Shown: positions 7,344 to 46,305 of the stretch, piece after piece
Numbering within the stretch: the stretch's first letter is position 1
Layout: each line of letters starts with the position of its first letter
Source: a virus
Lineage: Duplodnaviria; Caudoviricetes
Direction: 5' to 3' (one strand)
IMG/VR virus record: IMGVR_UViG_3300020577_011395
Location: 1 to 64,000 of that record
Length of the DNA: 64,000 nt
The notes under the pieces: generated by a model
What the model was told of the DNA's origin: nothing
The model's input: the letters and a program-made list of their open reading frames with translations, nothing else
Databases searched by the model: none
Program-made: the position numbers and the translations under genes

Positions 7344-8284
7344 CATAAAAGGAATAACAAACATGGAACTGATTTCTGGTAAGAACAATAAGCCCATCCA
7401 AGTTGTTGTGCATTATAACCGAAAGACGGCAGAAAATGGTATGCCTTGGACGATTCATGTTAAAGGAAGATGTATTCAGGTAAATCAAGTCGTGTTCAGC
7501 AAGGGCGTTTCAACAGTTTATATGCCCAACAAAAAGACTAATCCAAAAGGTTTCTTAAAGACAAAAGGTAAGGTTAAACTAACTGGTAGTCTATCTAATT
7601 TAATCGGAGAGATTTATTAAAATGAAAACAAAAAACAAAAACATTGCTAAGCCAAAACTTCAATCTTCTACATATTATGATTGGAGCGATATTGAAAATT
7701 ATTTATACCTAAAAGAAAGCATAAAACAAAATGAATCAGCAGAAGATTTATGGCACTTTATAGTTGATATATATGAACCTCAAAATGGCACAACTCATAC
7801 TATCGATTTTGAATATTTACTAGAAGTCTCAAAACATAAATGGCAGAAAGACATTGTAAAAACTCTTATGAAAGAACTTCCGGCGAAAAGGTAATGTTCT
7901 CATGGTAAACAATAAATTTTATATGATTCGCGATCAAAAGACTGGTGAATTTAGCAGAGGTGGAGCTTCATACGTATATTTTAGCAAGAAAGGTAAAATG
8001 TGGACGAAGTCTGCTTTAGAATCCCATCTAACGTCTTTATACCGGAACCTTTCCTATGGCCATAGAGATGAAAAAGATGATATGAATGCAGGTATTATTG
8101 ATGAAGATCGAAAACTCATCATCCACAAATTCTGGCTATCGGATAGAAACCCATATAAAGCATGTGACATTGTTGAGGTTAATTTTGAATATAAAGTTCT
8201 ATCAGATGTTTTCACTCATTTAAACAAAAGGAATGAAACGCCTAAGCGTATTAAAAAAAATAAGCAAATCAAAGAATAATACTA

Positions 8285-27914: not shown

Positions 27915-28091
27915 TTACTTGTTGGTATTGATGAAATTCTCCAAGAGGTTGGTATGCTCCACACGGGCGCAATTGATCTCGTTGTACACCTTCTCCAGTT
28001 CTGCATTCATGTCGTTGATACGCTCTTCCAGGATGGCCCGCTTCCTTTTCAGATCACGAAGATTGTAAACAGCGATAATGATCTTATCCAT
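27915..28091 (-). CDS. small coiled-coil protein
   Basis: AGGAGG RBS; heptad-like pattern. Confidence 0.6.
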   Translation of the reverse strand: MDKIIIAVYNLRDLKRKRAILEERINDMNAELEKVYNEINCARVEHTNLLENFINTNK

Positions 28092-28191
28092 TGTGTTACC
28101 TCCTATGCAGGGGTTGAGAGCCTGCAATCTGGGTTACACGTTGGGAGGGGCGATATTTTGCCCCTCCCTAACGCCCCTCACCTAGTAGGAG

Positions 28192-28611
28192 TTATTCCCT
28201 ATCATCGAGATAATCGTTTTTCGTTTCCATGTATTCCATGTACCATTCTTCCTCATTCCAGTGTTCATACGGGCGGGCCATACGCGCACCGTAGTGGGAG
28301 AGCAATTCTTCAATAGCACTCTTACGGTCGATCCGGGCTTGTGCGTCCGCCTGTTTCTTTTTGAGATGCGCAGCCTGTTCTGCCTCAGTCATTTCGGCCA
28401 TGAATTCAGCCTCAATCTCCGCATCCACTTCCCGATCCTCCCGCGAACGGAAGGACCGCGCCTCATCCTCATTGTGGAGGATGTTCCACTTGCTGGCGAG
28501 TTCCTGAACGATATCCTGCTTTGCCTGACAGACACCGCAGGTTTCGCCAGTTTCCTCGCACGTCTGGCAATCAGACGTGCCTTCAAAGACGACAGAGCGA
28601 TTGTTCGCCAT
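28192..28611 (-). CDS. acidic Zn-finger hypothetical
   Basis: CQTC..CGVC followed by a Glu-rich helical region. Confidence 0.65.
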   Translation of the reverse strand: MANNRSVVFEGTSDCQTCEETGETCGVCQAKQDIVQELASKWNILHNEDEARSFRSREDREVDAEIEAEFMAEMTEAEQAAHLKKKQADAQARIDRKSAIEELLSHYGARMARPYEHWNEEEWYMEYMETKNDYLDDRE

Positions 28612-29045
28612 GTTGTCCCCTTTGCGCCATAGGCGCATGAGAGTTTGCTTCGCCCATCCCAATGACAGGCAGAGCCATAGCTTTTGTAAACAGGTGTGGC
28701 TTTTTTCTTTTCAATGATCCTCAGCGACCACCTGCGTTCAGTGCGTCGTTGGTGAATGCATCCTACATGAGCCATCACAGGTGTCAAGCAGCAGGCGTAT
28801 AAGCCGCCTTGTAGGCACCAAGGCGCTCCCACTTGACAGGATCTCCTAATATGGTAGGGGGTCTTCACACGTACCAATATTTGACAAGTCGTGTGGGGTT
28901 TGTTAGAATTCAAGCCGCCGTATATAAAGAGCGGCGGCTGCTAACCAAGTCAAATGCCCCTATCCCCCTCCTATCAGCCGCCTAATAGTTGACAGCCGCC
29001 TGTGACCCCACCCTATCTAAGCGGTGGGGTCGGTAATGGGTTTGA

Positions 29046-29288
29046 CTACCAAGAACCGTATCGAATTGTCCCCCGGTTATAGAGAGCGGTGATACGCTCT
29101 TTCAAAACCGGTTTGACTTTCAACCATTCCTCCTCGGGGATATCGTTGTATTCCCAAGTGAAGTTACCGAACGACGCCGAAACGTGTTCGCGGGTTGGAA
29201 GGCCAGTACCTTTGATGACATCACCGATCAAATCACTGGGTCGGGGATATCCTGGTTCGCAGTCCAACTCAATCGTCTGAACAGCCAT
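29046..29288 (-). CDS. hypothetical protein
   Basis: AGGAGG RBS before MAVQTIELDC. Confidence 0.65.
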   Translation of the reverse strand: MAVQTIELDCEPGYPRPSDLIGDVIKGTGLPTREHVSASFGNFTWEYNDIPEEEWLKVKPVLKERITALYNRGTIRYGSW

Positions 29289-29427
29289 CGTACTACCTCC
29301 TAGGACAGGGCGCTCACAATGATAATAGTCAGGATGACCACCATCACAAACAATTCGATTGCATCTTCGATCATTGTTCCTCCGTGCCCCACCGCCTATC
29401 GTAGCACGGTGGGGCATTCAGGGTTGA

Positions 29428-29748
29428 CTACTTGCTGAGGAAGTTTTTAACGGCCTTCACAGTCGAAACGTGGGGGCGATTGATCTTGACATTCAGCACA
29501 CCCGGCGAGTGCCGGGTGAACTCGATTCGGTGGTTCATCGCGCTAACCACCGTTGCTTTCCGCCCGTTGATGAAGATTGCAAAACCCTTACCCGACCGCA
29601 CCACCGGATCGGGGTATTCCCGGTCAATGAATTCCTGAATGAACTCAACCGCCTTCCCGGTATCCATTGACCAGTAGATCGAAAAGAGAAAAGCGATTCC
29701 CGACAGGTTCATCGGGTAGGACCACTGCGTCATACGCTTGCCCTTCAT
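29428..29748 (-). CDS. hypothetical protein
   Basis: GAGG RBS. Confidence 0.6.
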   Translation of the reverse strand: MKGKRMTQWSYPMNLSGIAFLFSIYWSMDTGKAVEFIQEFIDREYPDPVVRSGKGFAIFINGRKATVVSAMNHRIEFTRHSPGVLNVKINRPHVSTVKAVKNFLSK

Positions 29749-29857
29749 GGTACACCTCTTAGGGGAATAGTCCCCCTTGTATCCCTGCCTGAATGGTCAG
29801 GGAATGTTGGAATCTTTTTCTTTGTTTGTCTGCTATTGCCTAGGTGGGCGGTTAGGG

Positions 29858-30187
29858 TTAGTCGTAGAACGGCTTTTCAAGCGGGAGGTATGCTCCCTTA
29901 TCTTCCCCGATCACCCATTCCTCTCCCTTGCAGGCCATGAGTTTAATGAAGTAAAGCAATTTCGCAACCTTGATCCCTGCCTTGGGATCACGCGGGTCAA
30001 TCACAACCCCGTGGCCCAATCGTTCATAGGTGTCATAGTACCAACCCCCTTCCTCCGGGCCACCATATGCACGGCCCATCAAATAGCAGGCGAGACGGGT
30101 CTTACGGGTCGGAATAACACCCCAAACCCTTTTCTTTTCTTTCCACTTAGTACCGGGGAGGGTAAACATCCCCACAAGTTTTGCCAT
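29858..30187 (-). CDS. hypothetical protein with YGGPEEGGWYY motif, flanked by a 28-bp inverted repeat
   Basis: ORF; inverted repeat 29824-29851 / 30196-30223. Confidence 0.65.
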   Translation of the reverse strand: MAKLVGMFTLPGTKWKEKKRVWGVIPTRKTRLACYLMGRAYGGPEEGGWYYDTYERLGHGVVIDPRDPKAGIKVAKLLYFIKLMACKGEEWVIGEDKGAYLPLEKPFYD

Positions 30188-30266
30188 TTGATACTCTGCC
30201 CACCTAGGCAATAACAGACAAACTTTCTACCAGTGCCTTTGCCCGACCATCGCGGTTAGTTGTTTA

Positions 30267-30515
30267 TTAGTAGCAATCCGCTGAAAGCGTAACCTTCAAT
30301 CCGCTTTCGTGTTCCAATTCCCTTGTCACTTGGGTGACAAGCTCCATCCGCCCAAACCTTTCGACAAGCGTTGAACCGCTTTTCACTCGCAGGCCGACGC
30401 CCATCAATCCAACCGTTGCAGTTTCGAGACGTTGCAAACCTTCCTCCATTGTGCAGAAGGTGGTGCGGACATTTTCCTTACCCCGAAAGACCATCCTGGA
30501 AACAAACTTTGCCAT
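30267..30515 (-). CDS. hypothetical protein flanked by a 27-bp inverted repeat
   Basis: GAGG RBS; inverted repeat 30227-30253 / 30529-30555. Confidence 0.6.
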   Translation of the reverse strand: MAKFVSRMVFRGKENVRTTFCTMEEGLQRLETATVGLMGVGLRVKSGSTLVERFGRMELVTQVTRELEHESGLKVTLSADCY

Positions 30516-31006
30516 GAGCATTCCTCTGGCAATGGTCGGGCAAAGACACTGGTAGCTATTCACTTGTCAAGGATCTCAAGGACCGCCTTGGTGCAGCGCG
30601 TCGTTTGATGAATGAATCATACACTAACCATTCAAGGTGTCAAGCAAGGTTGAACCTTTTGTTTGTGCAAGCCGCTTTGTTTTGTTTGCAACAGCCGCAA
30701 CCAAACCACTTGACCTAGCGCGTCGTTTGTGTTATTGACCCCTCCCCCTCTCCCCTAGGGGTTGACAGGGGGGCGGAAATCATGTAAGATGAAAAAGCGC
30801 TTTTTCGGGAAGGAAGAGCATAGGTCGTTCTTAAACCCCGTCCCAATTTTCAAGATTTTTTTTATTGCCTATATGCAGCCTCGTTATCCCTTCCAATTTT
30901 ACAGTTTTTTTATTGCCCCTATACAACCCCTTCCATCCTTGCTACCCTATCATAGTTTGCTACCCTTGTCTCCCTATCAAATATTAAAAAAACAATATTG
31001 TTCTGC

Positions 31007-31035
31007 TTGACTCCCTTTATTACCTGGGCTATGGT
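31007..31035 (+). promoter_or_regulatory. sigma70-type promoter
   Basis: TTGACT-17-TATGGT. Confidence 0.6.
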
Positions 31036-31064
31036 GACAGTTCAGTGGAGGTGTTTTATTTATC

Positions 31065-32735
31065 ATGGTGTATATTAAAGATATTAAACCGGGCGTTATA
31101 CTTGCTAACGGAGCTGTCCAGATTTTAATACTCAAAAAGGTAAAACAACAATATTCTCAGCTTTTAAAAGTTAAAGTCATAAGACAAGCTGTTTATGAAT
31201 TTTCTTATAATCGCGTTACAGATTATACACTTATTATCAATAAGGGTGAAAAGACAATATTGGGAGATTGGGAGGTATTATGTTAACACAAGATGACTTG
31301 AAGGCTGGCAGTATTGTTGAGTGTGTTGTTTTAAACAAAACTTATCGTTTACTTGCTTTAAAAGACGCTAGTGTTATGAATAAAGACACAACTGCTTTTA
31401 TTTTATCTATCATGTGGATTACACCAGATTTTGGTGATATAGTCCCTAGATATGTGCTGCATCAATACCCGGCTATTAATTGGACCAAACTATGCTAAAA
31501 TGTAAAGAAATCAAAGCTGGCAGCATATTGCAGTATCGCAATAATGATGGAGAACACTTTATAGCTCTTATTTTGCAGAGAATAAAAAAAACAAAAAATG
31601 GTGTTTCTGTAAAAATTATGTGGTTAGACCAAGCAATGTATGGCAGGATAGACAATAAAGTTATATTTAATGAAGCTGAACTTTTAGATTGGACACTATT
31701 ATGTTAAAACTTGAAGATATTAAAGCTGGTAATATACTTTGTTTACAAAGCGTAAATACTTATAAATTAATTGTTCTTAAAGATCTTAAGTTCCAAGATG
31801 TTCATGGTAATTTCTTGACAAATATCATGTGGCTTGATGATCAAAAATATGTTAGAGACTATGTATTTTTCAATACTGAAAAAAGCTTGTGGACCAAATT
31901 ATGCTAAAAATAAAAGATATAAAAGTAGGCGATCTGCTTAATTATGCACGTGCAGGAGCACACATGATGGTTGTTCTTGAAAAACCTAGAGATGTTGGCT
32001 ATTGTTATTCTGGAAGTATCATGTGGTTAAGCAATCAAATATGTGTTAAAGACTATTGTTTTTTTTAAATCTCATGAAAACCTGTGGAACAAAATATGCT
32101 AAAATTGTCTGACGTGAATGTTGGTTCTATCATAGAGCTTGCAAATGGCCATCCAACCAATAAGATTGTCATCTTGCAAGAATTTAAAAGATCGGATATT
32201 TCCAGACATATACCAGATAATGAAGTTAGATATCATACTATGGCATATTTTTGCAATCAGTCTTTAGTTTCAGATATATACATTTATTTTAACAGAGAAT
32301 CGCTTGTTTCTTACACTTGGAATATTGTATGTTAAAATTTAAAAAAGGGGATCTTATTTGGATCTGTGATATAGACAAGATGGGAGTTGTTCTTGATGTC
32401 CTGAAAGATTATTATAATGTTTATTGTTGTGACACGAACAGAACAGAATTAATTTATAAGATGCAAGCAGCGCAGGTACAAGAGGTTAAAAAAAAATGAA
32501 TGATGCTACTGTTTTAAATGAAGAACAAAAAAGAATTTTAGAAGCCAACAAAGAACTTGTTTTTAGTTGTCTGCCAGGTTCTTTGTTCGAATATGGCACT
32601 CATCGCTTTGTTCTTTTAAAAAAAGTGAAGCACAGCAGGTATATTGTTTTGTACAACTATACTGTCAATAAAAGAATAAAATTACAAAAACATCTCGCTT
32701 GTTTATTGAAAGTTATTTGGGCTAAAGAAGAATAA
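31065..32735 (+). CDS. cluster of MLKxxDIKxG...WxxLC paralogues, one frameshifted (31901-32102)
   Basis: same subfamily as 20580 and 22103-22756; TATGYTAA coupled junctions. Confidence 0.75.
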
Positions 32736-32757
32736 CGGGTTTGCTACTACTTATGTT

Positions 32758-33279
32758 ATGACCCAAAATATAGCATTTATTGAATTAGTTGAAAAAATAA
32801 AACAAGAATTTCCTTCTTTTGAGATTATTCCAAAAGATACTTCCAAACATATGAAATTCTTATACAAGTTTGGTTTGATGAAATATTGGTGTCCAAAGTT
32901 TATGGATACTTATACAACTCTTGCTCTCGGCAAGTGCTATATGCCTGAATACTTGATAGGTTCCTATCAAGGCTATAAAGTGCTTAGACACGAGCTTGTT
33001 CACCTTAGAGATCAAAAAAAATTTGGTTTGTTTTTCACAATTTCTTATGCAGCTCTTTTGCCGACTGTTCTGACGATGAGAGCATTCTGGGAGTTCAGGG
33101 CTTATTGTGAAACATTGGTTGTTTCACATGAATCACACGGATACGTTCCGAAAGAACATTTAGAGTCGTGTGTCCAGCAATTTACTGGATCTTCGTACCT
33201 CTTCATGTTTCCGTTTAGAAAAACAATTAGAAACAAATTTATTCAATTTATTGACAGAAATAATATGAAGTTGCGATAA
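32758..33279 (+). CDS. HExxH metallopeptidase-like protein
   Basis: LRHELVH...EFRAY. Confidence 0.55.
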   Translation: MTQNIAFIELVEKIKQEFPSFEIIPKDTSKHMKFLYKFGLMKYWCPKFMDTYTTLALGKCYMPEYLIGSYQGYKVLRHELVHLRDQKKFGLFFTISYAALLPTVLTMRAFWEFRAYCETLVVSHESHGYVPKEHLESCVQQFTGSSYLFMFPFRKTIRNKFIQFIDRNNMKLR

Positions 33280-33285
33280 AAAAGC

Positions 33286-33314
33286 TTGACACACAGCTAT
33301 TGCTGTGCTATGCT
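33286..33314 (+). promoter_or_regulatory. sigma70-type promoter
   Basis: TTGACA-17-TATGCT. Confidence 0.7.
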
Positions 33315-33345
33315 TCTAAAATACCAGAAAGGTAAGATAAAATCA

Positions 33346-33867
33346 ATGAGAACCCTAATCCTAAATCAAAGCTATGAAGCAACTGGTACTATCGGCTGGC
33401 AGAAGGCTGTTGCATATGTATTTCTTAAGAAAGCAATAGTTCTAGAAGAATACGACCGTGAAATTCGTTCAATGCGCTTTTCTATGAAAGTGCCTTCTGT
33501 TATTGTTCTTAAGTCGCATAAAGTTCACAAGCCAAAAGCCGTTCGTTATTCTAGAAAAAATGTTTGGCTTCGCGATGAAGGCAAGTGCCAATATTGCAAC
33601 AAAGATGTTAAACTTGCTGACTTTACTATTGACCACGTTCACCCAAAAACAAACGGTGGCAAGACTATTTGGGAAAATGTTGTTACCTCATGTTATAAAT
33701 GTAATCAAACAAAGGCAGAAAAAACTGTTCATGAGGCTGGTTTGAAACTAAAAAAAGTTCCTAAAAAACCAGCTCATTTGCCTCTGATATCTGAGGTTTC
33801 TGGTTTTTATGATGAAAATTATACTCATCCAACTTGGAGCTTTTGGCTTGGCAGGAAAACACCTTAA
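33346..33867 (+). CDS. HNH endonuclease (McrA-like family)
   Basis: LILNQSYE...RDEGKCQYC...TIDHVHP...WENVVTSCYKCN. Confidence 0.9.
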   Translation: MRTLILNQSYEATGTIGWQKAVAYVFLKKAIVLEEYDREIRSMRFSMKVPSVIVLKSHKVHKPKAVRYSRKNVWLRDEGKCQYCNKDVKLADFTIDHVHPKTNGGKTIWENVVTSCYKCNQTKAEKTVHEAGLKLKKVPKKPAHLPLISEVSGFYDENYTHPTWSFWLGRKTP

Positions 33868-34454
33868 TGAAGGCCCTAGTAATAGATACAGAAACAACGG
33901 GCTTAGATATAACAATTCATGAGATAATTGACATTGCTTTTATAGAAGCAACTCTCAACTTGGTTGGAGAATATAAAATAGTTGATCAATACTCTGTTAA
34001 AATTAAGCCTATGAACCTGCATTCTGCGGATAAATATGCATTAAAAATTAATGGCTATAATGACTATGATTGGAAAAACTCTCGCCCAATCACCGAGATT
34101 CTAGATATGCTCAAAGCAAAGATAGAGTCGGTAGAAGTTTTAGTCGGGCAGAATTTAATATTTGATATGAGATTTATTAAGCAATCTTTTATAAATCATG
34201 GTAAAATACCACCTATATTTCCAAAATATATTGATACAAAACGTATGGCAATGCCACTTGTTAAGAGTGGGGTTCTAAAGGCTTCAAATATGGATGTTCT
34301 TTGTGAGCACTATAAAATTTCTTATAGTGGTAAAGCACACACAGCTTTGGCAGATTGTGAGAGAACTTTAAAAGCTTGGAAGTGTCTATTAAACGATAGT
34401 GTAGAAATGCCGTTTTATACTTATGAGAAAAACTATGACCCATACAAAGCTTAA
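33867..34454 (+). CDS. DEDDh 3'-5' exonuclease (DnaQ-like)
   Basis: IDTETTG, NLIFD and HTALAD motifs. Confidence 0.9.
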   Translation: MKALVIDTETTGLDITIHEIIDIAFIEATLNLVGEYKIVDQYSVKIKPMNLHSADKYALKINGYNDYDWKNSRPITEILDMLKAKIESVEVLVGQNLIFDMRFIKQSFINHGKIPPIFPKYIDTKRMAMPLVKSGVLKASNMDVLCEHYKISYSGKAHTALADCERTLKAWKCLLNDSVEMPFYTYEKNYDPYKA

Positions 34455-34830
34455 TAAAAAAGCATTAGACATTATTGTTAAAACATTTAATTCTATTCAA
34501 GATTCTCGCAAAAGAGATTTAATTGCAGAAGTAATGATGTCCTATCCAGAAAATTTCTTAGAATTTATTGAAAACGTTGACAAACAAGCTTATGAAAAAA
34601 TAATGGCAAAAGCCTAGAATATTAACTATCTATAATATAAGCATTTTTCAGGAGGGATTTTATTATGAAAAAAACAGAAAACGCCCTACAGCAAATTCAG
34701 CTAGAAATGCCAGATTACTCAAGAGAATACTACGAATACAAAAAAAAGTTAGAGAAACAGGCCTCTAAGGAACAACAAAGGGTTATTATTATAGATATTT
34801 GAAGTTCATAAAATACATTTAATTTTTTAG

Positions 34831-34861
34831 AAACTACTTATGTCAATAGCATAAGTAGTTT
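34831..34861. promoter_or_regulatory. inverted repeat built from the ACTACTTAT motif (terminator and/or opposed phage promoters)
   Basis: AAACTACTTATG / CATAAGTAGTTT followed by a T-run. Confidence 0.5.
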
Positions 34862-34876
34862 TTTTATTCCTAAAAA

Positions 34877-35455
34877 ATGATACTCCTAGAAAATATTGGT
34901 CCTGATGACCTTAAAAAATATATTAAAGAGTTCTATAATTATGCAAAGAAACATTTGCAGTTAGAAGAAATGCCAAAAGTTGTCTTGAAGAAAGACAGTA
35001 AAAACGCAGAAGATATGTTTGGCAAAACTGGTTTTTATGAACCAAAAAGCAAAACAATAGCTCTGTTTACTGTTAATAGACATCCAAAAGATATTTTAAG
35101 GTCTTTTGCTCATGAACTAATACACCATAAACAAAATTGTGGTGGTTTATTTAATGAAATGGATATGTCAAGAACATCTGATATAGCTTATGCAAAAAAC
35201 GATAAAGACCTCAAAAAAATGGAAGAACAAGCATTTTTAGAAGGCAATATGATGTTTCGTAACTGGTGTGATGAAAATAAAATAAAAAGGACACAAATCA
35301 TGAGTGAATCTAAGAAAAATGAAGAGGTTGTACAGGGTGCAGAGAAGATCCCGCATCCAGAACTCTTCCAGAAAAAAGAGAGAATTTTTAAAGAAAGATT
35401 CCAAAGCCACGAAGAGGTTCTATATCAGGAACTTCTTAAGCGTGCGATAAAATAA
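34877..35455 (+). CDS. HExxH metallopeptidase-like protein
   Basis: DILRSFAHELIHHKQ...E. Confidence 0.6.
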   Translation: MILLENIGPDDLKKYIKEFYNYAKKHLQLEEMPKVVLKKDSKNAEDMFGKTGFYEPKSKTIALFTVNRHPKDILRSFAHELIHHKQNCGGLFNEMDMSRTSDIAYAKNDKDLKKMEEQAFLEGNMMFRNWCDENKIKRTQIMSESKKNEEVVQGAEKIPHPELFQKKERIFKERFQSHEEVLYQELLKRAIK

Positions 35456-35607
35456 TGGCTAGAGAGTTTATCATAACTAATATTAGTTCTTCAAATGTGC
35501 AGCATACTAGCACTGCTCCGTATGTGCCTTTTGTTTTGTCTATTCCTGGGCCTTTGTCCATAAGAAATAGAATCTCGCCATATACTTTGAATATTGGAAA
35601 ATAATAA

Positions 35608-36357
35608 ATGAAAATGCCAATTAAAGAGACAATCTGTATATACCCAGGACGTTTTCAACCAATGGGCTTACATCACGTAAATATTTTTAAAAGCTTACAG
35701 GAAAAGTATGGTGAAGATAACGTGTATGTTACAACCACCAATGAAGTACAACTACCAAATTCTCCTTTAAATATAAACGAAAAAAAGCTTATAATGTCAA
35801 TGCACGACATACCAAGAAAAAATATTGTTGAAGCACAAAATTTGTTTTCTTTCAACGAAGTGTTAAATGGAAGGAATTTAGAAGAAACAGCAGTTATTTT
35901 TGCAGCTGGTAAAAAGACGTTAAAAGAAAATAAAAAGTGGATCAAAGAAAATAGTACAAAATTCAAGAAGATTTCAGAAGGCAAAAAACACAAATTAAAG
36001 CCCATTTGTGAAACTGCGTATATATTTGAATTAAAACAAAGTAAAACAAAAATACAAGAAACTGGCTTAATTATTAATGGTGGTACAGATATCAGAGAAG
36101 CTCTAGCTAGTGGTGATGAAAAGTCTTTTAGATCTATTATGGGTTTTCATAATGATATGATTAGAGAATTGCTAGCTAAAAAATTTGCAGGCGCTAAGTC
36201 ATTTAATAGAAAAGAAGATGAAAAGTTAGAAGAAAATAAAATTTCTAATATCATTAAAGAAACAGTAAATGAGCTTTCACTTGTGCAGAATAATAAATAT
36301 TTTTTGTTATCTGAGCAAGAAATAAAGTATTTTAAAAACAAAGAAGAGGATAAATAA
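35608..36357 (+). CDS. cytidyltransferase-like (HIGH-type nucleotidyltransferase fold) protein
   Basis: IYPGRFQPMGLHH motif. Confidence 0.7.
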   Translation: MKMPIKETICIYPGRFQPMGLHHVNIFKSLQEKYGEDNVYVTTTNEVQLPNSPLNINEKKLIMSMHDIPRKNIVEAQNLFSFNEVLNGRNLEETAVIFAAGKKTLKENKKWIKENSTKFKKISEGKKHKLKPICETAYIFELKQSKTKIQETGLIINGGTDIREALASGDEKSFRSIMGFHNDMIRELLAKKFAGAKSFNRKEDEKLEENKISNIIKETVNELSLVQNNKYFLLSEQEIKYFKNKEEDK

Positions 36358-37244
36358 TGTCTGAATTAAATAAATTGAAAGAACATATTCGTGGAATTCT
36401 ATTAGAGAATAAGAAAGCTCAAAAAAGAGAATTTATCGAACAAACAATAAATGAATATAAACTTAGAAAAACTATAAGAAAAATGCTTAAAGAAGCAGAA
36501 GATATCGTTACTCACGAATCAACTGGTATCAACGTTCTTGCTGACTTGCTTGAAACCATCGTACCGATTCTTAAGTCGTTCTATAAAAAACTTGGAACAG
36601 ACATCCAACAGAGAAAGTCTTTCCGCGCTCATATTATTAAAAGCGTTCAAAACATGTTGGCTCCTATTTCTGTTATGTTTAGAGCTGGTGGACAATCTGG
36701 TGCGCCACCTGTACAAAAACCAGAAGTACCTCAAAATGAACTTGTTGAGTCAGTTTCTGAGGAAGTTAAAATTAACGTTCCAAAAAATGACGTTGACCCA
36801 AATTCACCAGACGCAGATCCAGCCTACATTCCTTTAAAGGCCGACAGAAAGGAAATGGGCAAGCAACAGGAAGAAAAACCACAAGATCCAAAGGCTGACG
36901 ACTATTTCGTTGAAGTTGAAGGTGAAGATGAAACCGGTAGAAATATTGCTCTACAGGCATTTAAACGCGTAGAAAAGCAAACCCGTGAAGCATTTAGCAT
37001 TCTAGCAAATGAAGATGATAGAAACTTATTTTATGATTACCTTATTACAAATCTCAAATTATATTTTGACAAGTTTGAAGACGAACTTCAAACCATGGTT
37101 CCAGAACCAACCACTCAAGAGTATGAGGCTGAAAAGGGTCGTAAAGACGCTGCATTAACTGCTGGAACTCCGACTCAGCAACCCGGAAGTCAGCAACCAG
37201 CAAGCCTAGGTAATGTGCCTTCGGCGGCTGGTACACCGAAATAA
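36357..37244 (+). CDS. hypothetical, possible virion/head protein
   Basis: repeated I/L-x-E motifs and an acidic, Pro-rich linker. Confidence 0.5.
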   Translation: MSELNKLKEHIRGILLENKKAQKREFIEQTINEYKLRKTIRKMLKEAEDIVTHESTGINVLADLLETIVPILKSFYKKLGTDIQQRKSFRAHIIKSVQNMLAPISVMFRAGGQSGAPPVQKPEVPQNELVESVSEEVKINVPKNDVDPNSPDADPAYIPLKADRKEMGKQQEEKPQDPKADDYFVEVEGEDETGRNIALQAFKRVEKQTREAFSILANEDDRNLFYDYLITNLKLYFDKFEDELQTMVPEPTTQEYEAEKGRKDAALTAGTPTQQPGSQQPASLGNVPSAAGTPK

Positions 37245-37334
37245 TGGATAGTAGAAGTAGGGTCATGGACCAGAGCAGACTAACCTAGAACCAATAAGTG
37301 TTAAAGTTTTCAATTAAAACAAAGGAAAAATAAG

Positions 37335-37628
37335 ATGAATGCACACAGAAGAAAAAAAACAGCTAGAATAGAACGCAGCAAAGAATTAAGTTTGGTAGAA
37401 AAAGTCATAGAAATTACCAAGGAAGATCTTAAAAAACTTGCCGTTGCAGAGACTTTCGAGGAGAAACAAGAAGTAGTTAAAGAAGTACTACCAGTACAAG
37501 AACAAGTACTAGAACAAGTTGAAGAAGTTGTTCAGCCAGTTGAAGAAACTAAAGTAGAATTTTCAGAAGCAGCAGAAGAAACTACTGTAAAAAATAAGCC
37601 AGGCCGCAAGAAAAAAGTAGAAGTTTAA
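37335..37628 (+). CDS. low-complexity Glu/Val/Lys-rich protein
   Basis: AAGGA RBS; composition. Confidence 0.55.
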   Translation: MNAHRRKKTARIERSKELSLVEKVIEITKEDLKKLAVAETFEEKQEVVKEVLPVQEQVLEQVEEVVQPVEETKVEFSEAAEETTVKNKPGRKKKVEV

Positions 37629-37658
37629 CAAAAATAAACACACTGTTATACTGTCCCC

Positions 37659-37943
37659 ATGGACAAAAAAACTTTTAAACAAATAGGGACAGAAATAGGT
37701 ACTTTGGTAGAAGAAAAAAATTCTGCATATGGTAGTTCGTTTGCTGAGTCTTATAAGATACTTAATACTTTATATCCTAATGGTATAAAGCCAGAACAAT
37801 ATACTGATGCTCTTGCAATAATAAGAGTCATTGACAAATTATTTAGAATAGCAAATAAAAAAGATGCCTTTGGGGAATCCCCTTGGAAAGATATTGCTGG
37901 ATATGCAATTTTAGGAATCAGCAACGATGAATCAAAAAAGTAG
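37659..37943 (+). CDS. nucleotide-modification-associated (MazG/dUTPase-like helical) domain protein
   Basis: KNSAYGSSF...DKLFRI...ESPWKDIAGYAIL. Confidence 0.65.
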   Translation: MDKKTFKQIGTEIGTLVEEKNSAYGSSFAESYKILNTLYPNGIKPEQYTDALAIIRVIDKLFRIANKKDAFGESPWKDIAGYAILGISNDESKK

Positions 37944-38268
37944 AGAACTATATTCTGTTTCTAAAGAGCTAAAAAAAGAACATAAAAGCAACGATCTATT
38001 TGAAATTATGTTGTCTAGGTTACCGTTAGAAGACCTTATTGCTCTTAAATTGGAAGTTGCATTTAAGTCTATGGGAACTCCAGTATATGGAATCCCTATT
38101 TTTAAAGCTACTTCTAGAGCGGTTAAAGAAGCAACATTAAAATACGCAATTTCAGCCACTGATTCTAAAAGACAGGCAGCAATGTTGTTGGGATTAAATT
38201 ATTTAAGTTTTATTAAACAGTTAAAAAAGTACAATTTATTGGAGTATTATAATAAAAATGATAACTGA
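37927..38268 (+). CDS. Fis-like HTH protein
   Basis: KRQAAMLLGL...LKKYNL. Confidence 0.6.
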   Translation: MNQKSRELYSVSKELKKEHKSNDLFEIMLSRLPLEDLIALKLEVAFKSMGTPVYGIPIFKATSRAVKEATLKYAISATDSKRQAAMLLGLNYLSFIKQLKKYNLLEYYNKNDN

Positions 38269-38833
38269 TATTATGCTAAAAAGTATTATGCCATCAGCAC
38301 CGATTGCTAATATTTCTATGTATTCTGAGGCTTTTTCAAAAATATTGCCAAAGTATAAAATTGATACACCAAAGAGAATTGCTGCTTTTTTAGGGCAGAT
38401 AGCAGTTGAAAGTGGCCAATTAAAATTTACTAAAGAACTACCCAGCAAGTGGAACAAAAAGAACCCGAAAGATCCAAAAGAGCCTGTTGGATCACTTTAT
38501 GAAGGAAGAAAATTACTTGGAAATAACCAACCAGGTGACGGACCAAAATTTATTGGTCGTGGAATTCTTCAATTGACAGGACGAAATAATTATGATAGTT
38601 TTGGTAAAAAGGTTGGTGAGGATCTAATTAGTAAACCAGAACTTGCGTGTGACCCAATTATTGCTACTAAAATAGCTTGTCAATATTTTGTTGATAAAGG
38701 TTTATTGGAACTAGCAGATGTTTGGAATTTAGACGAAATAACAAGAAAAGTTAATGGTAACGCAAAGCTACACCTAATAGAAAGAATCGCTTTCTCCGAA
38801 CGAGCACTAAGGATTTTAAATGCAAAAGTCTAG
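38258..38833 (+). CDS. GH19 endolysin (chitinase/lysozyme-like)
   Basis: AAFLGQIAVES, GRGILQLTGRNNY and ITRKVNG motifs. Confidence 0.9.
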   Translation: MITDIMLKSIMPSAPIANISMYSEAFSKILPKYKIDTPKRIAAFLGQIAVESGQLKFTKELPSKWNKKNPKDPKEPVGSLYEGRKLLGNNQPGDGPKFIGRGILQLTGRNNYDSFGKKVGEDLISKPELACDPIIATKIACQYFVDKGLLELADVWNLDEITRKVNGNAKLHLIERIAFSERALRILNAKV

Positions 38834-39303
38834 ACACCCAGCGCATGAACACAAAGATAGCATCTCATACAATTCGTTGTATGACGCCTTTGCCTGTGTT
38901 CAGTGTAATTCATGGCTTGAGCCAAAATGCGATGATAATAAGTGCGTCTTTTGCGCGCTCCGACCAGAAAGTCCGATAAAACAAAAAGAACTGCCCAGAA
39001 GCTAACACCCAAATAATAGCATCTGGATTCTACGAAGGAGGCTAAAATGGAAGAACAAAAAGTAAAGCACTGGACAAATGAAGGGTACTTCCCAACATTT
39101 GAAGAAGCAGACAAAGTAAGAAACTCACTCAAAAATAACGATACAAGCGGATTCCTACAGGTTAAAGTTAAAACCTGTGGTGGGGAACGACGTCTTTATG
39201 TTGTCAAGTCTAGAGTCGATGAGTCTCTTGTAAATAAATTAAATGAAGTTGAAAACGATCTGAAGAAAGTTAAAGAAAGAAAGAAAAAATAAGAGGGCTT
39301 CCT

Positions 39304-39900
39304 ATGAAACAAAATTGGATGTCAGCTACAAAGCCCACAGCTGAAGAAGAAATAGAAGATCTAAATGATGTAGAAGAAATAGATAATTCTATCTTTTTTT
39401 ATACTGAAGTGACAAAAAAATCAGTTTATGAACTCAATAAAAAACTGAAAAAGATATCTGACAATTTAATAAATATTTCTAATACTCTTGGAATACCGCC
39501 TCCAAGTATAAAGATTCACATAAATAGTCCTGGTGGTAGTTTACTAGATTGCTTTGCTGCTGTAGACGCAATAAGAAAATGTAAAGTTCCAGTTCACACT
39601 ATTATAGAAGGCAGCGCAGCAAGTGCTGCAACGTTAATGTCTGTTGTTGCAAAAGAACGATCAATAAATAAACACGCATTTATGCTGATACATCAGCTAT
39701 CAGGTGGTATGTGGGGTAAGTTTGAAGAGATGAAAGATGAGTTTCAAAACTCAAAAATATTTATGGATACATTAATACGAATTTATTCAGAGAACACAAA
39801 AATACCAAAAGTAATATTAAAAGAAATACTAAAAAAAGATTTATATTGGGACGCAAAAACCTGCCTAAAATACGGGCTGGTTGACAAGATCGACGGGTGA
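39304..39900 (+). CDS. clpP: ClpP-like protease
   Basis: INSPGG, AASAA, MLIHQ and YGLVD motifs. Confidence 0.85.
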   Translation: MKQNWMSATKPTAEEEIEDLNDVEEIDNSIFFYTEVTKKSVYELNKKLKKISDNLINISNTLGIPPPSIKIHINSPGGSLLDCFAAVDAIRKCKVPVHTIIEGSAASAATLMSVVAKERSINKHAFMLIHQLSGGMWGKFEEMKDEFQNSKIFMDTLIRIYSENTKIPKVILKEILKKDLYWDAKTCLKYGLVDKIDG

Positions 39901-39953
39901 GTGTAGAGTGTTATCCTCGCTGAACGCTCCCGAGACGAAAAAAAAATAAAACA

Positions 39954-39988
39954 GCCCCTTGACAGACGGACGGGGCCATGCTAGAGTA
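39954..39988 (+). promoter_or_regulatory. tRNA-array promoter, identical 35-bp copy at 42033-42067, related copy at 45134-45162
   Basis: GCCCC-TTGACA-GACGGACGGGGCCATGC-TAGAGT-A. Confidence 0.85.
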
Positions 39989-40027
39989 GGTTCATAAGCT
40001 AGCGCAACAGGTTAAAATAAAACATAA

Positions 40028-40102
40028 GCGGGCATGATGTAATTGGCAACATTCCAGACTTCCAATCTGGCCTTACCAGATCATTGCTGGTTGTCCGCTC
40101 CA
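40028..40102 (+). tRNA. tRNA-Gly(TCC), atypical T-loop ATCATTG
   Basis: GCGGGCA/TGTCCGC-T-CCA; CCAGA-CTTCCAA-TCTGG. Confidence 0.8.
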
Positions 40103-40125
40103 CCTTCAAAAGAAAAGAGATAAAA

Positions 40126-40548
40126 ATGACTGTAAAAAAGAATACTAAACCTAAAGTTGTAATTCCAAAGATTAGTCAAGGCGATATGGTATATTTTGCT
40201 GAGAATTCTCATAGTCTTCAAACAGGTATGAAGCCAAACCACCTGTATGAAGTTGCTGGGGTAGACAAAGATGCTCGCACTGTTTTTATTGACCTAGACG
40301 GGAATAATAAACTAGCTCAAGTAGATATTATGGATTGTTTAGTACAAGATGTAGATAAAGACTTTGACCGTGGATACAAGCTTGGAAAAAAAATCGCTGA
40401 TCGCATGAAATGCGTTCTTCGAGAAGAATTAAAAAATGAAGCTGTTTATGGAGAAAATTTCTTACACGGATTCCAAGAATATGTAAATTATAATTCTGAG
40501 TTCGAAGATATTATAGAGAATAATCAAAAATTAGTTGAATACTGGTAA
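40126..40548 (+). CDS. hypothetical protein
   Basis: ORF between tRNAs. Confidence 0.6.
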   Translation: MTVKKNTKPKVVIPKISQGDMVYFAENSHSLQTGMKPNHLYEVAGVDKDARTVFIDLDGNNKLAQVDIMDCLVQDVDKDFDRGYKLGKKIADRMKCVLREELKNEAVYGENFLHGFQEYVNYNSEFEDIIENNQKLVEYW

Positions 40549-40562
40549 TATAAAGTAATTAT

Positions 40563-40639
40563 CCGGGTGTAGCTCAGTCGCGAAGAGCATCTGATTTGGG
40601 ATCAGAAGGCCGCAGGTTCGATTCCTGTCACCCGGACCA
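40563..40639 (+). tRNA. tRNA-Pro(TGG)
   Basis: cloverleaf; TCTGA-TTTGGGA-TCAGA; CCA. Confidence 0.92.
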
Positions 40640-40658
40640 ACCTTCTGAGAAGGTATTA

Positions 40659-41279
40659 ATGAAGTTAAGCGAAATCTCGATAGAAGAACTTTCTAAAATT
40701 ACTAAAGAAAGTTCTTCGTATGCTGAAGTCTTCCGACGTTTGGGAAGAAAGACCCATAGTGGCATGGGCCTAAAATATTTAAAGATAAAGTTAGAAGAAA
40801 ATAATATAGATGTTGGACATTTTAAAAGAGTTATAAAGCCAAATTCTATACCTAGATTAACAGCAGAAACAATTTTTCAAGATAACTATAAAATAAGATG
40901 TACCGCAAAAAAATTAAGAAAAACTCTTTTAAGTGTTGGCGTTGAACATAAATGTGCTGTATGTTCATTAACAACTTGGCAAAATAATAAAATTGTTTTA
41001 GAAATAGATCATATAGATGGCAATCCGCTAAACAACAAGATAGAAAATTTAAGATTTATATGTCCCAACTGCCACTCGCAAACGAATAATTATGGTTCTA
41101 AAAATATGAAAAAACAAACCAAGAAAGTTTATATAAAGCGCCAACGAAAAACAAAAATAAATTGGCCTTCAAAAGAAAAGCTACAAGAACTTCTAGACAA
41201 GAATTCTTTTGAAGAAGCTGCAAGATTTCTTGGTGTATCATCAAATGCAATTAGAAAAAGACTAAAAAAGGAGTATTAG
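40659..41279 (+). CDS. HNH homing endonuclease with C-terminal HTH
   Basis: CAVC...EIDHIDGN...NLRFICPNCHS; AARFLGVSSNAIRKRL. Confidence 0.9.
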   Translation: MKLSEISIEELSKITKESSSYAEVFRRLGRKTHSGMGLKYLKIKLEENNIDVGHFKRVIKPNSIPRLTAETIFQDNYKIRCTAKKLRKTLLSVGVEHKCAVCSLTTWQNNKIVLEIDHIDGNPLNNKIENLRFICPNCHSQTNNYGSKNMKKQTKKVYIKRQRKTKINWPSKEKLQELLDKNSFEEAARFLGVSSNAIRKRLKKEY

Positions 41280-41343
41280 GTTAATGGTAAACCGGGGAGC
41301 TGTCGACTCTCAAAAAAGGGTTCAATTCCCTTATACTCCGCCA
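41270..41343 (+). tRNA. tRNA-Asp(GTC), overlaps the HNH stop codon
   Basis: GGAGTAT/ATACTCC-G-CCA; loop CTGTCGA. Confidence 0.88.
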
Positions 41344-41852
41344 TTTTCTTTAAAAGGATTTATAAAATGTCTCTACTAAAGAATAGAGTAAGCGGAAAAG
41401 TAAAGTTTTTATTCTACCAAGCTGGTCAGCTATGGTATGAGTGTGAAGATAGTTACAGATTTTCAGTAGATGTTCCCGGAGATACTGGAACAGGTAGATT
41501 TCTTGTCGAAGATAAGGGTCTATATTTTATGAGATATATTAGAAAGTCAATGAATTTAGAGGAGTAAAATAATGTCTGAAAATCTATATAAACAATGTGT
41601 ACTAGTAAAATCAGTTGGAGAATCAAAAATCTTTGATACTTCTTGGATTCCTCAAAAATTCGCTAAGCAAGGCAAACAATTAAAAATTAAGAATTCTCAT
41701 GGTATCTGGGAAGATGGTTGGACTGTAGAATCAGCAGGAACAAATGCACTAGAGTTCGTTGCTCTACAGAGACAAGAAGATTCTCAGAGATATCTAGCTC
41801 ATAAAGTAGCAATTAAGGACGATAGAAGTTTAAGTAAGTAAAAATAGAATAC

Positions 41853-42081: not shown

Positions 42082-42120
42082 GGGGAAGCGGCAAAGTTGG
42101 AGAGTTGGAGTGGACTATAA
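42082..42120 (+). pseudogene. 5' half of a disrupted tRNA (probably Tyr)
   Basis: GGGGAAG-CG-GCAAAGTTGGAGAGTTGG-A-GTGGA-CTATAA, stops in the anticodon loop; directly after a promoter. Confidence 0.7.
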
Positions 42121-42158
42121 TAAATTTAACCTTTCAATTTTTCAAAACTATATATAGT

Positions 42159-42680
42159 ATGAACACTATAAAATGTAAAAGTTGTCAAGAATATTTTGAA
42201 GTTACTGCCAATACTAAAAGAAAAATTTTTTGTAATAGAAAGTGTTCTGCTCAATATAATAATAAGCGTAGAATAGTTTCTGAATCTACAAGACTAAAAT
42301 ATAGTGAAAATCTCAAAAATAGAATTAAAGTGAATGGCCCACTAACTTCCGGGGAAACGGCTATAAAATATGGCTCGGATAGTCAAAAAGGCAAGCATAA
42401 TAAAGAAATAAAATCAATTTATGAATGTTCCTCTCGTACTAGAGAAAAAATAATTAAACGCTTAAAAATGGGTTGTTCTAGGTGTGGTTGGTCTGAAGGT
42501 AATGGCGACATACATCATATAAATGGAAGAAAAATAGAAGACGCTAATAATATGTCAAATCTTTGTTATTTGTGCCCTAATTGTCATAGATTATGTCACG
42601 AAGGCAAAATATTAAAAGAATCTTTAATTCCTTTATCAAAAACAATACCTGAAAACTGGAAAGAATATTATTATGGTTGA
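42159..42680 (+). CDS. HNH homing endonuclease
   Basis: CKSC..FCNRKC N-domain; CSRC...DIHHI...NLCYLCPNCHRLCH. Confidence 0.88.
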   Translation: MNTIKCKSCQEYFEVTANTKRKIFCNRKCSAQYNNKRRIVSESTRLKYSENLKNRIKVNGPLTSGETAIKYGSDSQKGKHNKEIKSIYECSSRTREKIIKRLKMGCSRCGWSEGNGDIHHINGRKIEDANNMSNLCYLCPNCHRLCHEGKILKESLIPLSKTIPENWKEYYYG

Positions 42681-44631: not shown

Positions 44632-44838
44632 ATGTATAAAGAAAACCTACCAAAACTATGTTGTAAGAACGTTGGTGGCCATAGTGTTAAATGGTGCGGA
44701 CAAGAAGCAACAGTTTGGTATAAACACTACGGCACAGAAGATATTTGTTCTTATTGTGAGCAACACGATTACGAATGTGGTGAAAAAGTTAATATCGACC
44801 CCTTGGCCGAGAGTCTAGGCATTAGTCTGCAAAACTAA
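44632..44838 (+). CDS. Cys-rich small protein whose 3' end runs into tRNA-Cys
   Basis: GGAG RBS; CC..C..CxxCxxH. Confidence 0.5.
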   Translation: MYKENLPKLCCKNVGGHSVKWCGQEATVWYKHYGTEDICSYCEQHDYECGEKVNIDPLAESLGISLQN

Positions 44839-44870
44839 TCACATTGGTTAAAATCCAATAGGGGTCTCCA
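44797..44870 (+). tRNA. tRNA-Cys(GCA)
   Basis: GACCCCT/AGGGGTC-T-CCA; loop CTGCAAA. Confidence 0.9.
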
Positions 44871-44886
44871 AGAAGGGAACTAATTT

Positions 44887-45102
44887 ATGCTGATTGAAGC
44901 TGTAACAGAAGGTGCAATTGTCACTACCGCTGTTGATTTAGAAAGTGGCGGTATAACAATTCCAAAAGGAATACAGGGAACCGTGGTGCATATTTATCCA
45001 GGCTCACAGGCTTTTGAAGTTGAATTTCTTCTTGATATTAATACGGAAGATACATATACTCTAGTTGTAACTGTAATGTTTAATCAACTAGAACTTGTGT
45101 GA
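44887..45102 (+). CDS. DUF4926-like small beta-barrel protein
   Basis: IPKGIQGTVVHIY...AFEVEF. Confidence 0.7.
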   Translation: MLIEAVTEGAIVTTAVDLESGGITIPKGIQGTVVHIYPGSQAFEVEFLLDINTEDTYTLVVTVMFNQLELV

Positions 45103-45206
45103 GCGGGAATAAAACAGAAAAATAAAGAGCCGCTTGACACGCCGCCGGACCTGTGGTAGAGTAGGTTCATAAGATTGAGACACACCAAAGAAAAGGATTG
45201 ATAAAA

Positions 45207-45677
45207 ATGAACACTGTAAAACTTCGCAAGGCCCTCCAAATTAAGAATCGTCTAGCTGGTGAAATTGCTAATCTAACTCGTCGTCTGAATGTAAACAACC
45301 ATCCTGACCAAGATGGTAAGGCTCCTGAGTTTGATATTCGTGCCCTTTTAGCTGAACGTAAAGAACTAGTAAATAAGCTAGTACAGGTAAAGACTGTTAT
45401 TGCAAAGGCTAACGTTGATATCTATGAAAAGATCAATCAACTAGCTGAACTAAAGAGCGAGGTTTCTGTACTATCTCTAATCCCTACTCAAGATGTTCGT
45501 GGCAATAAAAGAGTACTAGTTGAAGGCCGTTATGATTATCTTGATACTGTTACACCTGCGGTTATTAAATCTAAAGAAGTACAAGAAAAAGTTACTGCTC
45601 TTAATTTAGAAATTGAAAGTCTACAAGACGCAATCGACTATCATAATTCGGTCACTGATGTTGTTGTGCCGGAATAA
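45207..45677 (+). CDS. helical coiled-coil protein, DIP1984/DUF6847-like
   Basis: KLxKALxxKNRLxxEI...IAKAN...LQDAIDYHNSVT pattern (recalled similarity, not searched). Confidence 0.55.
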   Translation: MNTVKLRKALQIKNRLAGEIANLTRRLNVNNHPDQDGKAPEFDIRALLAERKELVNKLVQVKTVIAKANVDIYEKINQLAELKSEVSVLSLIPTQDVRGNKRVLVEGRYDYLDTVTPAVIKSKEVQEKVTALNLEIESLQDAIDYHNSVTDVVVPE

Positions 45678-45692
45678 GTTAGTCTAAAAGCT

Positions 45693-45939
45693 AGGGAGTA
45701 GCCAACACCTATTCCAACATATTTTAGAATATAATGGTTAAAAATCTTTCGATTCATACTCGAAAACCTCCTTTGCCTGGATGATAAAACACGACAAGGA
45801 TAAGGAACAGCGGATTCGTCCGCCCAAAACTTAAGTCTTTTTCTATTAAGATTGAAAGTTTAAAACCTAAACCACAAACTCTAAAATTCTTCCAACCATT
45901 TTTTTGAAGTGTGCTTGGAGTAGGTGTTGGCGAAACCTT
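45693..45939 (+). ncRNA. stem-closed structured RNA with heptamer-periodic loop
   Basis: 17-bp closing stem 45701-45717 / 45915-45931, AGTA/GAAA internal loop, NAANNNN units at 45825-45888. Confidence 0.65.
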
Positions 45940-45950
45940 TTATAATTTAT

Positions 45951-46026
45951 GGGATCGTAGCTCAATTGGCAGAGCATTCCGCTTTTAACGGACAGGTTGT
46001 GGGATCGTCACCCACCGATCCCACCA
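45951..46026 (+). tRNA. tRNA-Lys(TTT)
   Basis: loop CTTTTAA; T-loop ATCGTCA; CCA. Confidence 0.88.
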
Positions 46027-46119: not shown

Positions 46120-46198
46120 TTTTTAGAACATAGCTTAACGGAAAAGCATACCTCAAAATAGAGGTGGATTTTGGTTCGAATCCAAATGATTCTAAAAA
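46120..46198 (+). ncRNA. tRNA-like element 1 (6-nt anticodon loop, no CCA)
   Basis: D-arm GCTT/AAGC, ACCTC-AAAATA-GAGGT, T-arm TTTGG-TTCGAAT-CCAAA. Confidence 0.6.
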
Positions 46199-46227: not shown

Positions 46228-46305
46228 GGCCCATTCATCTACGTTTGGCTAGGATATTGGACTTTCACTCCAACAAAACGGGATCGACACCCGTATGGGC
46301 TACCA
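46228..46305 (+). tRNA. tRNA-Glu(TTC)
   Basis: TTGGA-CTTTCAC-TCCAA. Confidence 0.9.

Follow-up and report, generated by a model that had tools for sequence, protein, structure and literature searches.

A distant DIP1984/DUF6847-like protein gene and the structured heptamer RNA behind it: a probable two-part ribonucleoprotein module in a viral tRNA array

The Locus and Its Setting

The DNA analysed here, referred to as the window, corresponds to positions 1-64,000 of a 129-kb IMG/VR virus record (IMGVR_UViG_3300020577_011395), which is rated about 40% complete and therefore probably derives from a jumbo phage. Between 40.0 and 48.9 kb, the window carries an array with 28 of its 29 tRNA genes, all of them on the + strand (ARAGORN). 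Inside this array, flanked by tRNA-Cys (44797-44870) and tRNA-Lys(UUU), lie a gene for a small helical protein and, right behind it, a structured non-coding RNA. An earlier note on this DNA, made from the letters alone, had described a promoter-like site, this gene, about 250 nt of non-coding sequence, stems, an AGUA/GAAA internal loop and a series of 7-nt units, and all of these were found where it had placed them. The gene and its immediate surroundings comprise the following features:

45134-45162, + strand: promoter-like site TTGACA-17 nt-TAGAGT with TG ahead of the -10 element (TGnTAGAGT), a consensus match only (10 of 12 positions)
45193-45197, + strand: SD-like AAGGA, 9 nt ahead of the ATG
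45207-45677, + strand: gene for a 156-aa DIP1984/DUF6847-like helical protein (ATG at 45207, stop codon at 45675-45677)
45951-46026, + strand: tRNA-Lys(UUU), starting 11 nt past the end of the RNA, with no terminator between

Promoter-like sites are not in excess across the region (6 vs 4.3 ± 2.2 in shuffles). Directly upstream of the module, a 71-aa ORF (44887-45102, + strand) is the counterpart of a DUF4926 gene that holds the same position in the close relative L004. Elsewhere in the array, two tRNA-like elements on the + strand (46125-46194 and 46228-46302) pass the Rfam tRNA gathering score with 31.2 and 40.9 bits, while ARAGORN is silent on both; they may be degenerate or unusual tRNAs of the array. 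Between tRNA-Trp and tRNA-Tyr, a 191-aa ORF (42105-42680, + strand) shows, by eye only, an HNH-type motif (CxxC ... HH ... CxxCH); the ORF resembles a homing-endonuclease insertion of the kind seen among the tRNA genes of phage T5.

The Protein and Its Family

The 156-aa protein matches the model NF038048 (DIP1984_fam) over positions 1-148 of 149 with 26.7 bits (E 5e-6) and the model PF20935 (DUF6847) over its full length with 22.7 bits (E 1e-4), in both cases below the curated cut-offs of 70 and 27, respectively. An AlphaFold2 model computed from 13 relatives (pLDDT 90.8) shows a helix-helix-beta hairpin-helix fold with paired termini. The top structural match to this model is 3KDQ (Foldseek TM 0.78, probability 1.00), a Corynebacterium diphtheriae protein without assigned function, which we take to be the namesake of the DIP1984 family. 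In VIA-align the two superpose with a Z of 13.4 and an rmsd of 2.5 Å over 142 of 152 residues; the runner-up reaches a Z of 8.9, and 3KDQ is the sole real structural match. Furthermore, a profile of 46 relatives matches 3KDQ over its full length (E 0.028). The 3KDQ entry holds four chains. Fold and length (about 150 aa) are those of the DIP1984 family, whose members are often mis-annotated as 'septicolysin', and the motifs KAL..KN.L.GE, ANV.IYE and LQD.ID..N stand out as conserved when set against that family. With full-length HMM matches and the structural agreement, the family assignment of the earlier note holds in a weaker form: the protein is a distant, not a typical, DIP1984/DUF6847 member.

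An exhaustive phmmer search yielded 1008 cluster representatives at E<=1e-3, nearly all of 141-177 aa, and one relative (P0010) bears PF20935. No match was returned when viral contigs were queried with the single protein, genome contigs with a close alignment of it, or plasmids by tblastn. A PHROGs search of the protein gave nothing useful, PADLOC gave chance-level coiled-coil matches only, and no nuclease or toxin fold appeared among the structural matches of the model. No published function for the DIP1984 family was found, nor any paper naming a partner RNA.

Architecture of the RNA

The RNA can be divided into the elements listed below, all on the + strand. Pair changes and paired cells refer to six distant relatives aligned by fitting to a covariance model, a procedure that favours the structure and inflates pair counts.

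45693-45939, + strand: complete structured non-coding RNA of 247 nt, from outer helix AGGG to CCUU; begins 15 nt past the stop codon
Ends of 45693-45939, + strand: outer helix AGGG/CCUU, outside the AGUA/GAAA loop
45697-45700, + strand: AGUA, 5' half of a loop-E/bulged-G-like internal loop with its partner GAAA at 45932-45935, a sequence motif only
45701-45729, + strand: P1 5' strand, forming 29 pairs with 45902-45931; both partners change in 23 of these pairs, with 88% of cells paired
45733-45739, + strand: P2 5' strand AAUGGUU, pairing with AACCAUU at 45894-45900; both partners change in 7 of 7 pairs
45747-45765, + strand: P3 hairpin UUUCGA-UUCAUAC-UCGAAA; 6 of 6 pairs covary
45798-45808, + strand: purine-rich box A GGAUAAGGAAC (GAUAAUGA in relatives), a conserved block in a MAFFT alignment
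45810-45823, + strand: P5 hairpin GCGGA-UUCG-UCCGC; 5 of 5 pairs covary, with two double compensatory changes relative to L004
45825-45888, + strand: eight 7-nt units, arranged as two, an 8-nt spacer and six in exact phase (p about 0.0014)
45882-45897, + strand: box B AAAAUUCUUCCAACC, near-invariant in the six relatives
45902-45931, + strand: P1 3' strand, with the same evidence as the 5' strand

No ORF of at least 40 aa was found on either strand over 45678-45923. The RNA has a minimum free energy of -80.1 kcal/mol, vs -48.3 ± 4.7 in 200 dinucleotide shuffles (z -6.8), and the minus strand reaches -67.8 kcal/mol (z -3.7). The model structure has 73 pairs, all of them standard and seven of them G-U; since the G-U pairs would be C-A mismatches on the opposite strand, the + strand is the RNA strand.

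The closing part of P1 (45701-45717 with 45915-45931) contains 16 Watson-Crick pairs and one G-U pair, exactly as the earlier note had counted. Its inward extension, CAUAUUUUA with UGAAGUGUG, adds nine pairs, three of which are G-U. Between P3 and box A lies P4, an irregular helix. The GGAA of box A (45804-45807) pairs with UUCC (45890-45893) and thereby closes the loop that carries the heptamer array; in the same model-fitted alignment, this helix has 82.6% of cells paired and two of its four pairs change on both sides. Box B overlaps three elements: the last unit of the array, the UUCC that closes the loop, and the P2 3' strand.

At the base of the RNA, AGUA/GAAA sits between two Watson-Crick helices, AGGG/CCUU and P1, and has one A more than the canonical loop-E motif. 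The sequence on which the earlier note had based a sarcin-ricin/bulged-G assignment is present and is kept in the subfamily of the window; an AGUA...GAA base around covarying stems of differing sequence recurs at 8 of 74 loci. The AGUA/GAA base is thus a trait of this subfamily and does not define the class as a whole.

The Heptamer Array

In order, the units read CAAAACU, UAAGUCU, the 8-nt spacer, UAAGAUU, GAAAGUU, UAAAACC, UAAACCA, CAAACUC and UAAAAUU. A chain of six phased non-A+AA (YAA-type) anchors is reached in 0.14% of 5000 dinucleotide shuffles. Across the family, 220 strictly phased units from 72 non-redundant loci give the consensus n-U-[C/U]-A-A-[A/G]-n. The periodicity noticed in the window is kept across phyla: at least four phased anchors occur in 52% of 71 downstream regions, vs 6-10% in the three controls (reverse complement, coding region and upstream region). 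In G+C-rich Planctomycetota, too, the Y-A-A core is kept (GUUCAAG GCUCAAG ... CCGCAAA).

The array is not necessarily single-stranded throughout. The first four units are able to form a hairpin, for which comparative support is weaker (68-71%), so that part of the array may be helical. In addition, relatives differ in how many units they have, and this speaks against a fixed ring.

Several other assignments were considered for the array and its vicinity and then dropped. Three of them concerned the units, taken as complementary to the anticodon loop of tRNA-Lys(UUU), as mimics of anticodon loops of the NAA/NAG type, or as mimics of T-loops (UUCAA); a fourth took P4 and box A as an anti-SD/SD pair. 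None of the four is family-conserved, and the units have no stems beside them.

As the RNA begins so close to the stop codon, with neither a promoter nor a terminator between, it could also be a cis-acting 3' untranslated element of the protein mRNA, serving as a stabiliser, as a processing platform for RNase III or RNase E, or as a site of translational feedback, instead of a free-standing RNA. At 29 bp, P1 would have sufficient length for RNase III. A 247-nt fold with multiple helices, conserved boxes and a phased array far exceeds the needs of stabilisation, however, and an explanation of this kind is considered unlikely.

Conservation and Covariation

Genes homologous to that of the window are found in two huge-phage genomes (LR756511 and LR756500), on metagenome contigs, in 22 loci binned to bacterial or archaeal MAGs (mostly Planctomycetota) and in 64 IMG/VR loci. 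The earlier note had expected such genes to share the downstream stem and heptamers, and nearly all of the loci do: 170-280 ORF-free nt follow the gene, begin with a strand of the long stem and hold a 7-nt periodic tract.

A covariance model (R1) was built from the window RNA and that of L004 only, whose protein is 94% identical. Right behind the homologous gene, it found full-length + strand matches in six more loci (L005, L009, L043, L006, L001 and L076) with E-values from 5e-14 (L005) to 2e-3 (L076), at protein identities of at most 60%. In the model-fitted alignment of these six relatives, 83.4% of cells are paired, vs 56.0 ± 2.1% after shuffling and at most 51% with the partner slid, and 57 of the 73 pairs are maintained although both partners have changed. 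Comparative support is strongest for P1, P2, P3 and P5, moderate for the four-pair helix of box A and box B, and weaker for the hairpin of the first four units. A check that is independent of this alignment is offered by the pair of close relatives: the window and L004 differ in 9 of 146 paired columns vs 16 of 111 unpaired ones, and all seven affected pairs stay standard, two of them through double compensatory changes. In P1, all three differences keep pairing via G-U.

A MAFFT alignment of the six divergent RNAs gave zero consensus pairs in RNAalifold because the lengths of P1 differ, and the covariance model was therefore used instead. With the folding energy of the window RNA (z -6.8) and the matches behind six distant homologous genes, the stem-closed + strand RNA proposed in the earlier note has proved to be conserved, and the gene and the RNA are linked.

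The same data bear on a reading at the level of DNA, in which the inverted repeat would be a miniature transposable element or another palindrome. Its long terminal inverted repeats and the above-chance folding of the minus strand would suit such an element. Yet a covariance-model search finds a single copy in the 129-kb record, the position is fixed behind one gene family, the seven G-U pairs and wobble-only substitutions favour a + strand transcript, and the internal hairpins covary. A mobile or DNA-level origin of the repeat is thus highly improbable.

Rfam 15 contains no match to 45678-45945 on the + strand up to an E-value of 10; three minus-strand matches in the same interval, to eukaryotic snoRNA and lncRNA models (E 0.11-6.3), are far below their gathering scores. 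When Rfam 15 was applied to the window and to 20 diverse related loci, tRNA alone reached its gathering score, with the Y RNA, RAGATH motifs and GOLLD/ROOL models included. In the full-text literature on DIP1984, DUF6847, 3KDQ, RAGATH-27 and septicolysin, no description of such an RNA was found. The pair of gene and RNA is therefore uncatalogued and probably represents an undescribed protein-RNA particle.

Occurrence on Plasmids and Gene Neighbourhood

'Septicolysin' is the name given to a gene on Acinetobacter OXA-24 plasmids (PMC3358182), which RefSeq calls a DIP1984 family protein. On the A. baumannii plasmid pABVA01 (NC_012813, positions 7087-7870; locus L103), the DIP1984 family gene is followed by 322 gene-free nt with a closing stem, a GAGUAC box, a GAUAAGC box and phased YAA units. 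Model R1 did not detect this RNA. The 784-nt block is present in 351 Acinetobacter plasmids.

The small plasmid pABVA01 also carries BrnT/BrnA, and with a repeat RNA adjoining a small protein, the pair might be regarded as a type III-like toxin-antitoxin or abortive-infection system, in which the RNA neutralises a toxic protein. Several points speak against this: the protein lacks a nuclease or toxin fold, with 3KDQ as its sole real structural match; the PADLOC matches are of the chance-level coiled-coil kind; the RNA lies downstream, with units of 7 nt instead of about 36 nt that are embedded in a complex fold; and the module is also found in the tRNA arrays of lytic jumbo phages. This interpretation is accordingly improbable. 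The toxin/antitoxin, sensor and anti-defence roles suggested in the earlier note gained no direct support, as there is no real PADLOC match, no nuclease or toxin fold, and a layout unlike that of type III systems.

Same-strand tRNA arrays stand beside about one third of the loci. Among 232 flanking ORFs there is no constant third gene family; they include two RtcB, two NAPRTase and two NAD synthase genes, together with nicotinamidase, Tpt1 and an RNA-repair HAD domain. Further loci have an Rnl-type RNA ligase, a weak match to a tRNA-ligase CPDase, or Ro60. Although tRNA arrays and genes for RNA repair and NAD recur near the module, the association is loose, and the module as such requires no more than its gene and its RNA. 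The link to RNA repair is weak because the neighbouring functions are sporadic (two RtcB in 232 ORFs). In the 129 kb of the record (about 40% complete), no RtcB, Rnl2-type or T4 Rnl1-type ligase was found; the Rnl1 model matched no control genome either, and with a record this incomplete these negative results count for little.

Two neighbourhoods may be mentioned in their own right. On several related phage contigs (L006-L010 and L017), the module lies within a NAD-salvage block (NAPRTase, NAD synthase, nicotinamidase and nucleotidyltransferase) together with an Rnl-type RNA ligase, and this block may be a counter-defence island. On a G+C-rich metagenome contig (L019, 2902-6316), a DIP1984-like gene and an RNA with CUCAGAC-type heptamers lie 1.4 kb from Ro60 (TROVE/vWA_Ro60).

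Sponge RNAs, e.g., CsrB and CrcZ, typically carry numerous identical short motifs in single-stranded form. By analogy, the RNA could serve as a sponge or decoy whose target is some other factor, for example a ribonuclease of the host or of a defence system, or a global RNA-binding protein; the array would then mimic the substrate of that factor, and the neighbouring protein would act separately or only as a helper. The tRNA arrays and the RNA-repair and NAD-salvage genes in a phage context would suit such a counter-defence role. The strict order of gene and then RNA in phages, Planctomycetota and Acinetobacter plasmids points, however, to a cis-encoded partner and not to a lineage-specific host factor, and a covarying scaffold as elaborate as this one is rare in sponge RNAs. 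A sponge is thus an unlikely interpretation.

Comparison with Known Systems

HutP on the hut mRNA and TRAP on the trp leader, both of Bacillus subtilis, likewise bind single-stranded RNA in which short purine-containing motifs recur at a short and constant distance. HutP reads UAG triplets that are 7 nt apart. The natural reading of such a fixed spacing would be one motif per subunit of an oligomer. The RNAs of HutP and TRAP are mRNA leaders that control termination, whereas the RNA described here is stand-alone, stem-closed and located behind the gene. Neither TRAP nor HutP is among the structural or Pfam matches of the protein, although such lists may miss a relation.

A protein gene adjoining a stem-closed RNA of about 100-250 nt is likewise found in the rsr-yrlBA-rtcBA operons, which encode Ro60 (Rsr) and bacterial Y RNAs. 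Common to both systems is the association with RtcB or RNA repair and with phages, and in the relative L019 a Ro60 gene lies near the module. Unlike Ro60, the protein described here is not a TROVE protein; its RNA has no Y-RNA match in Rfam, and Y RNAs lack a heptamer array.

ToxIN, a type III toxin-antitoxin system of phages and plasmids, similarly has a repeat RNA beside a presumed protein partner. In ToxIN, repeats of 36 nt lie upstream and are cut by the toxin endoribonuclease, whereas the 7-nt units described here lie downstream, within a fold, and next to a protein without a nuclease fold. Beyond the chance-level coiled-coil matches of PADLOC, neither a ToxN-like nor another defence family was found at the locus.

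Non-tRNA RNAs within tRNA arrays also have precedents in the stable RNAs of phage tRNA clusters, namely RNAI, RNAIII, RNA1, RNA2 and RNAX of T5 and species 1 and 2 of T4. Like the RNA of the window, these are probably released by tRNA-processing enzymes. In T5 (AY543070; locus L101), the region 28000-41600 contains eight annotated 'stable RNAs with unknown functions', including the 719-nt RNAX. A DIP1984-like gene was not matched in the T5 genome with NF038048 or with the 46-sequence profile.

A Proposed Ribonucleoprotein Module

Taken as a whole, the locus is probably a two-part module, in which the protein and the co-transcribed structured RNA form a ribonucleoprotein. This reading is favoured because the order of gene and then RNA is fixed across very distant hosts, because no third gene is constant, and because the ends of the array are tied together by covarying helices. 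Binding of the protein to the RNA, its stoichiometry, the processing of the RNA and its role are inferred; the mechanism put forward in the earlier note, an oligomeric protein with one heptamer per subunit, is plausible.

The proposed particle would be assembled as follows. The small three-helix protein of the DIP1984/DUF6847 fold would be made from the same transcript as the 247-nt RNA right behind its gene. In the RNA, a long closed stem, consisting of the outer helix, the loop-E-like AGUA/GAAA, the 29-bp P1 and P2, opens into a junction with one large loop, closed by box A (GGAA) and box B (UUCC), and with two or three hairpins of small size. The large loop presents the 7-nt units, about eight in number and sharing the core U-Y-A-A-R, on which several copies of the protein may assemble side by side, while the stem and the hairpins would act as a stable handle and nucleation site. 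The product would be a discrete particle of RNA and protein with a mass of about 200 kDa. A ring or an arc would go well with a closed array loop, and an open, nucleocapsid-like row with the varying unit number in relatives.

Given the position of the module inside a tRNA array, the RNA would probably be freed from the polycistronic transcript by tRNA-processing enzymes. With no terminator and with tRNA-Lys only 11 nt further on, the 3' side of the precursor would probably be set by RNase P. As for the role of the particle, the most likely one, as a best guess, is in RNA or tRNA stress, i.e., in RNA damage, repair or counter-defence.

A more far-reaching and rather unlikely version of the ribonucleoprotein reading can also be put forward. 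The RNA, once cut from the tRNA-array transcript, might have its paired ends joined by a ligase of the RtcB or Rnl type to give a covalently closed circle, and DIP1984-like protomers might then coat its loop. The resulting nuclease-resistant particle could act as a decoy or as a scaffold for repair enzymes in the contest of phages or plasmids with host defences over the cleavage of tRNA and other RNA.

Significance and Outlook

The window adds a clean example of the module, located among tRNA genes and with a base that resembles loop E. If the ribonucleoprotein reading is true, it would provide a partner for a domain-of-unknown-function family that has had a structure since 2009 and that is mislabelled as 'septicolysin' on hundreds of Acinetobacter resistance plasmids. 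Moreover, a widespread class of non-coding RNA, occurring in jumbo phages, several bacterial phyla and plasmids, would join the catalogue. A fixed reading frame of 7 nt is rare in RNA, and the mode in which a protein would read it is therefore of structural interest. That tRNA arrays, RNA ligases, Ro60 and NAD-salvage genes recur near the module suggests a connection with RNA damage and with the conflict between phage and host, and this connection is directly testable in Acinetobacter, for which strains, plasmids and RNA-seq data exist.
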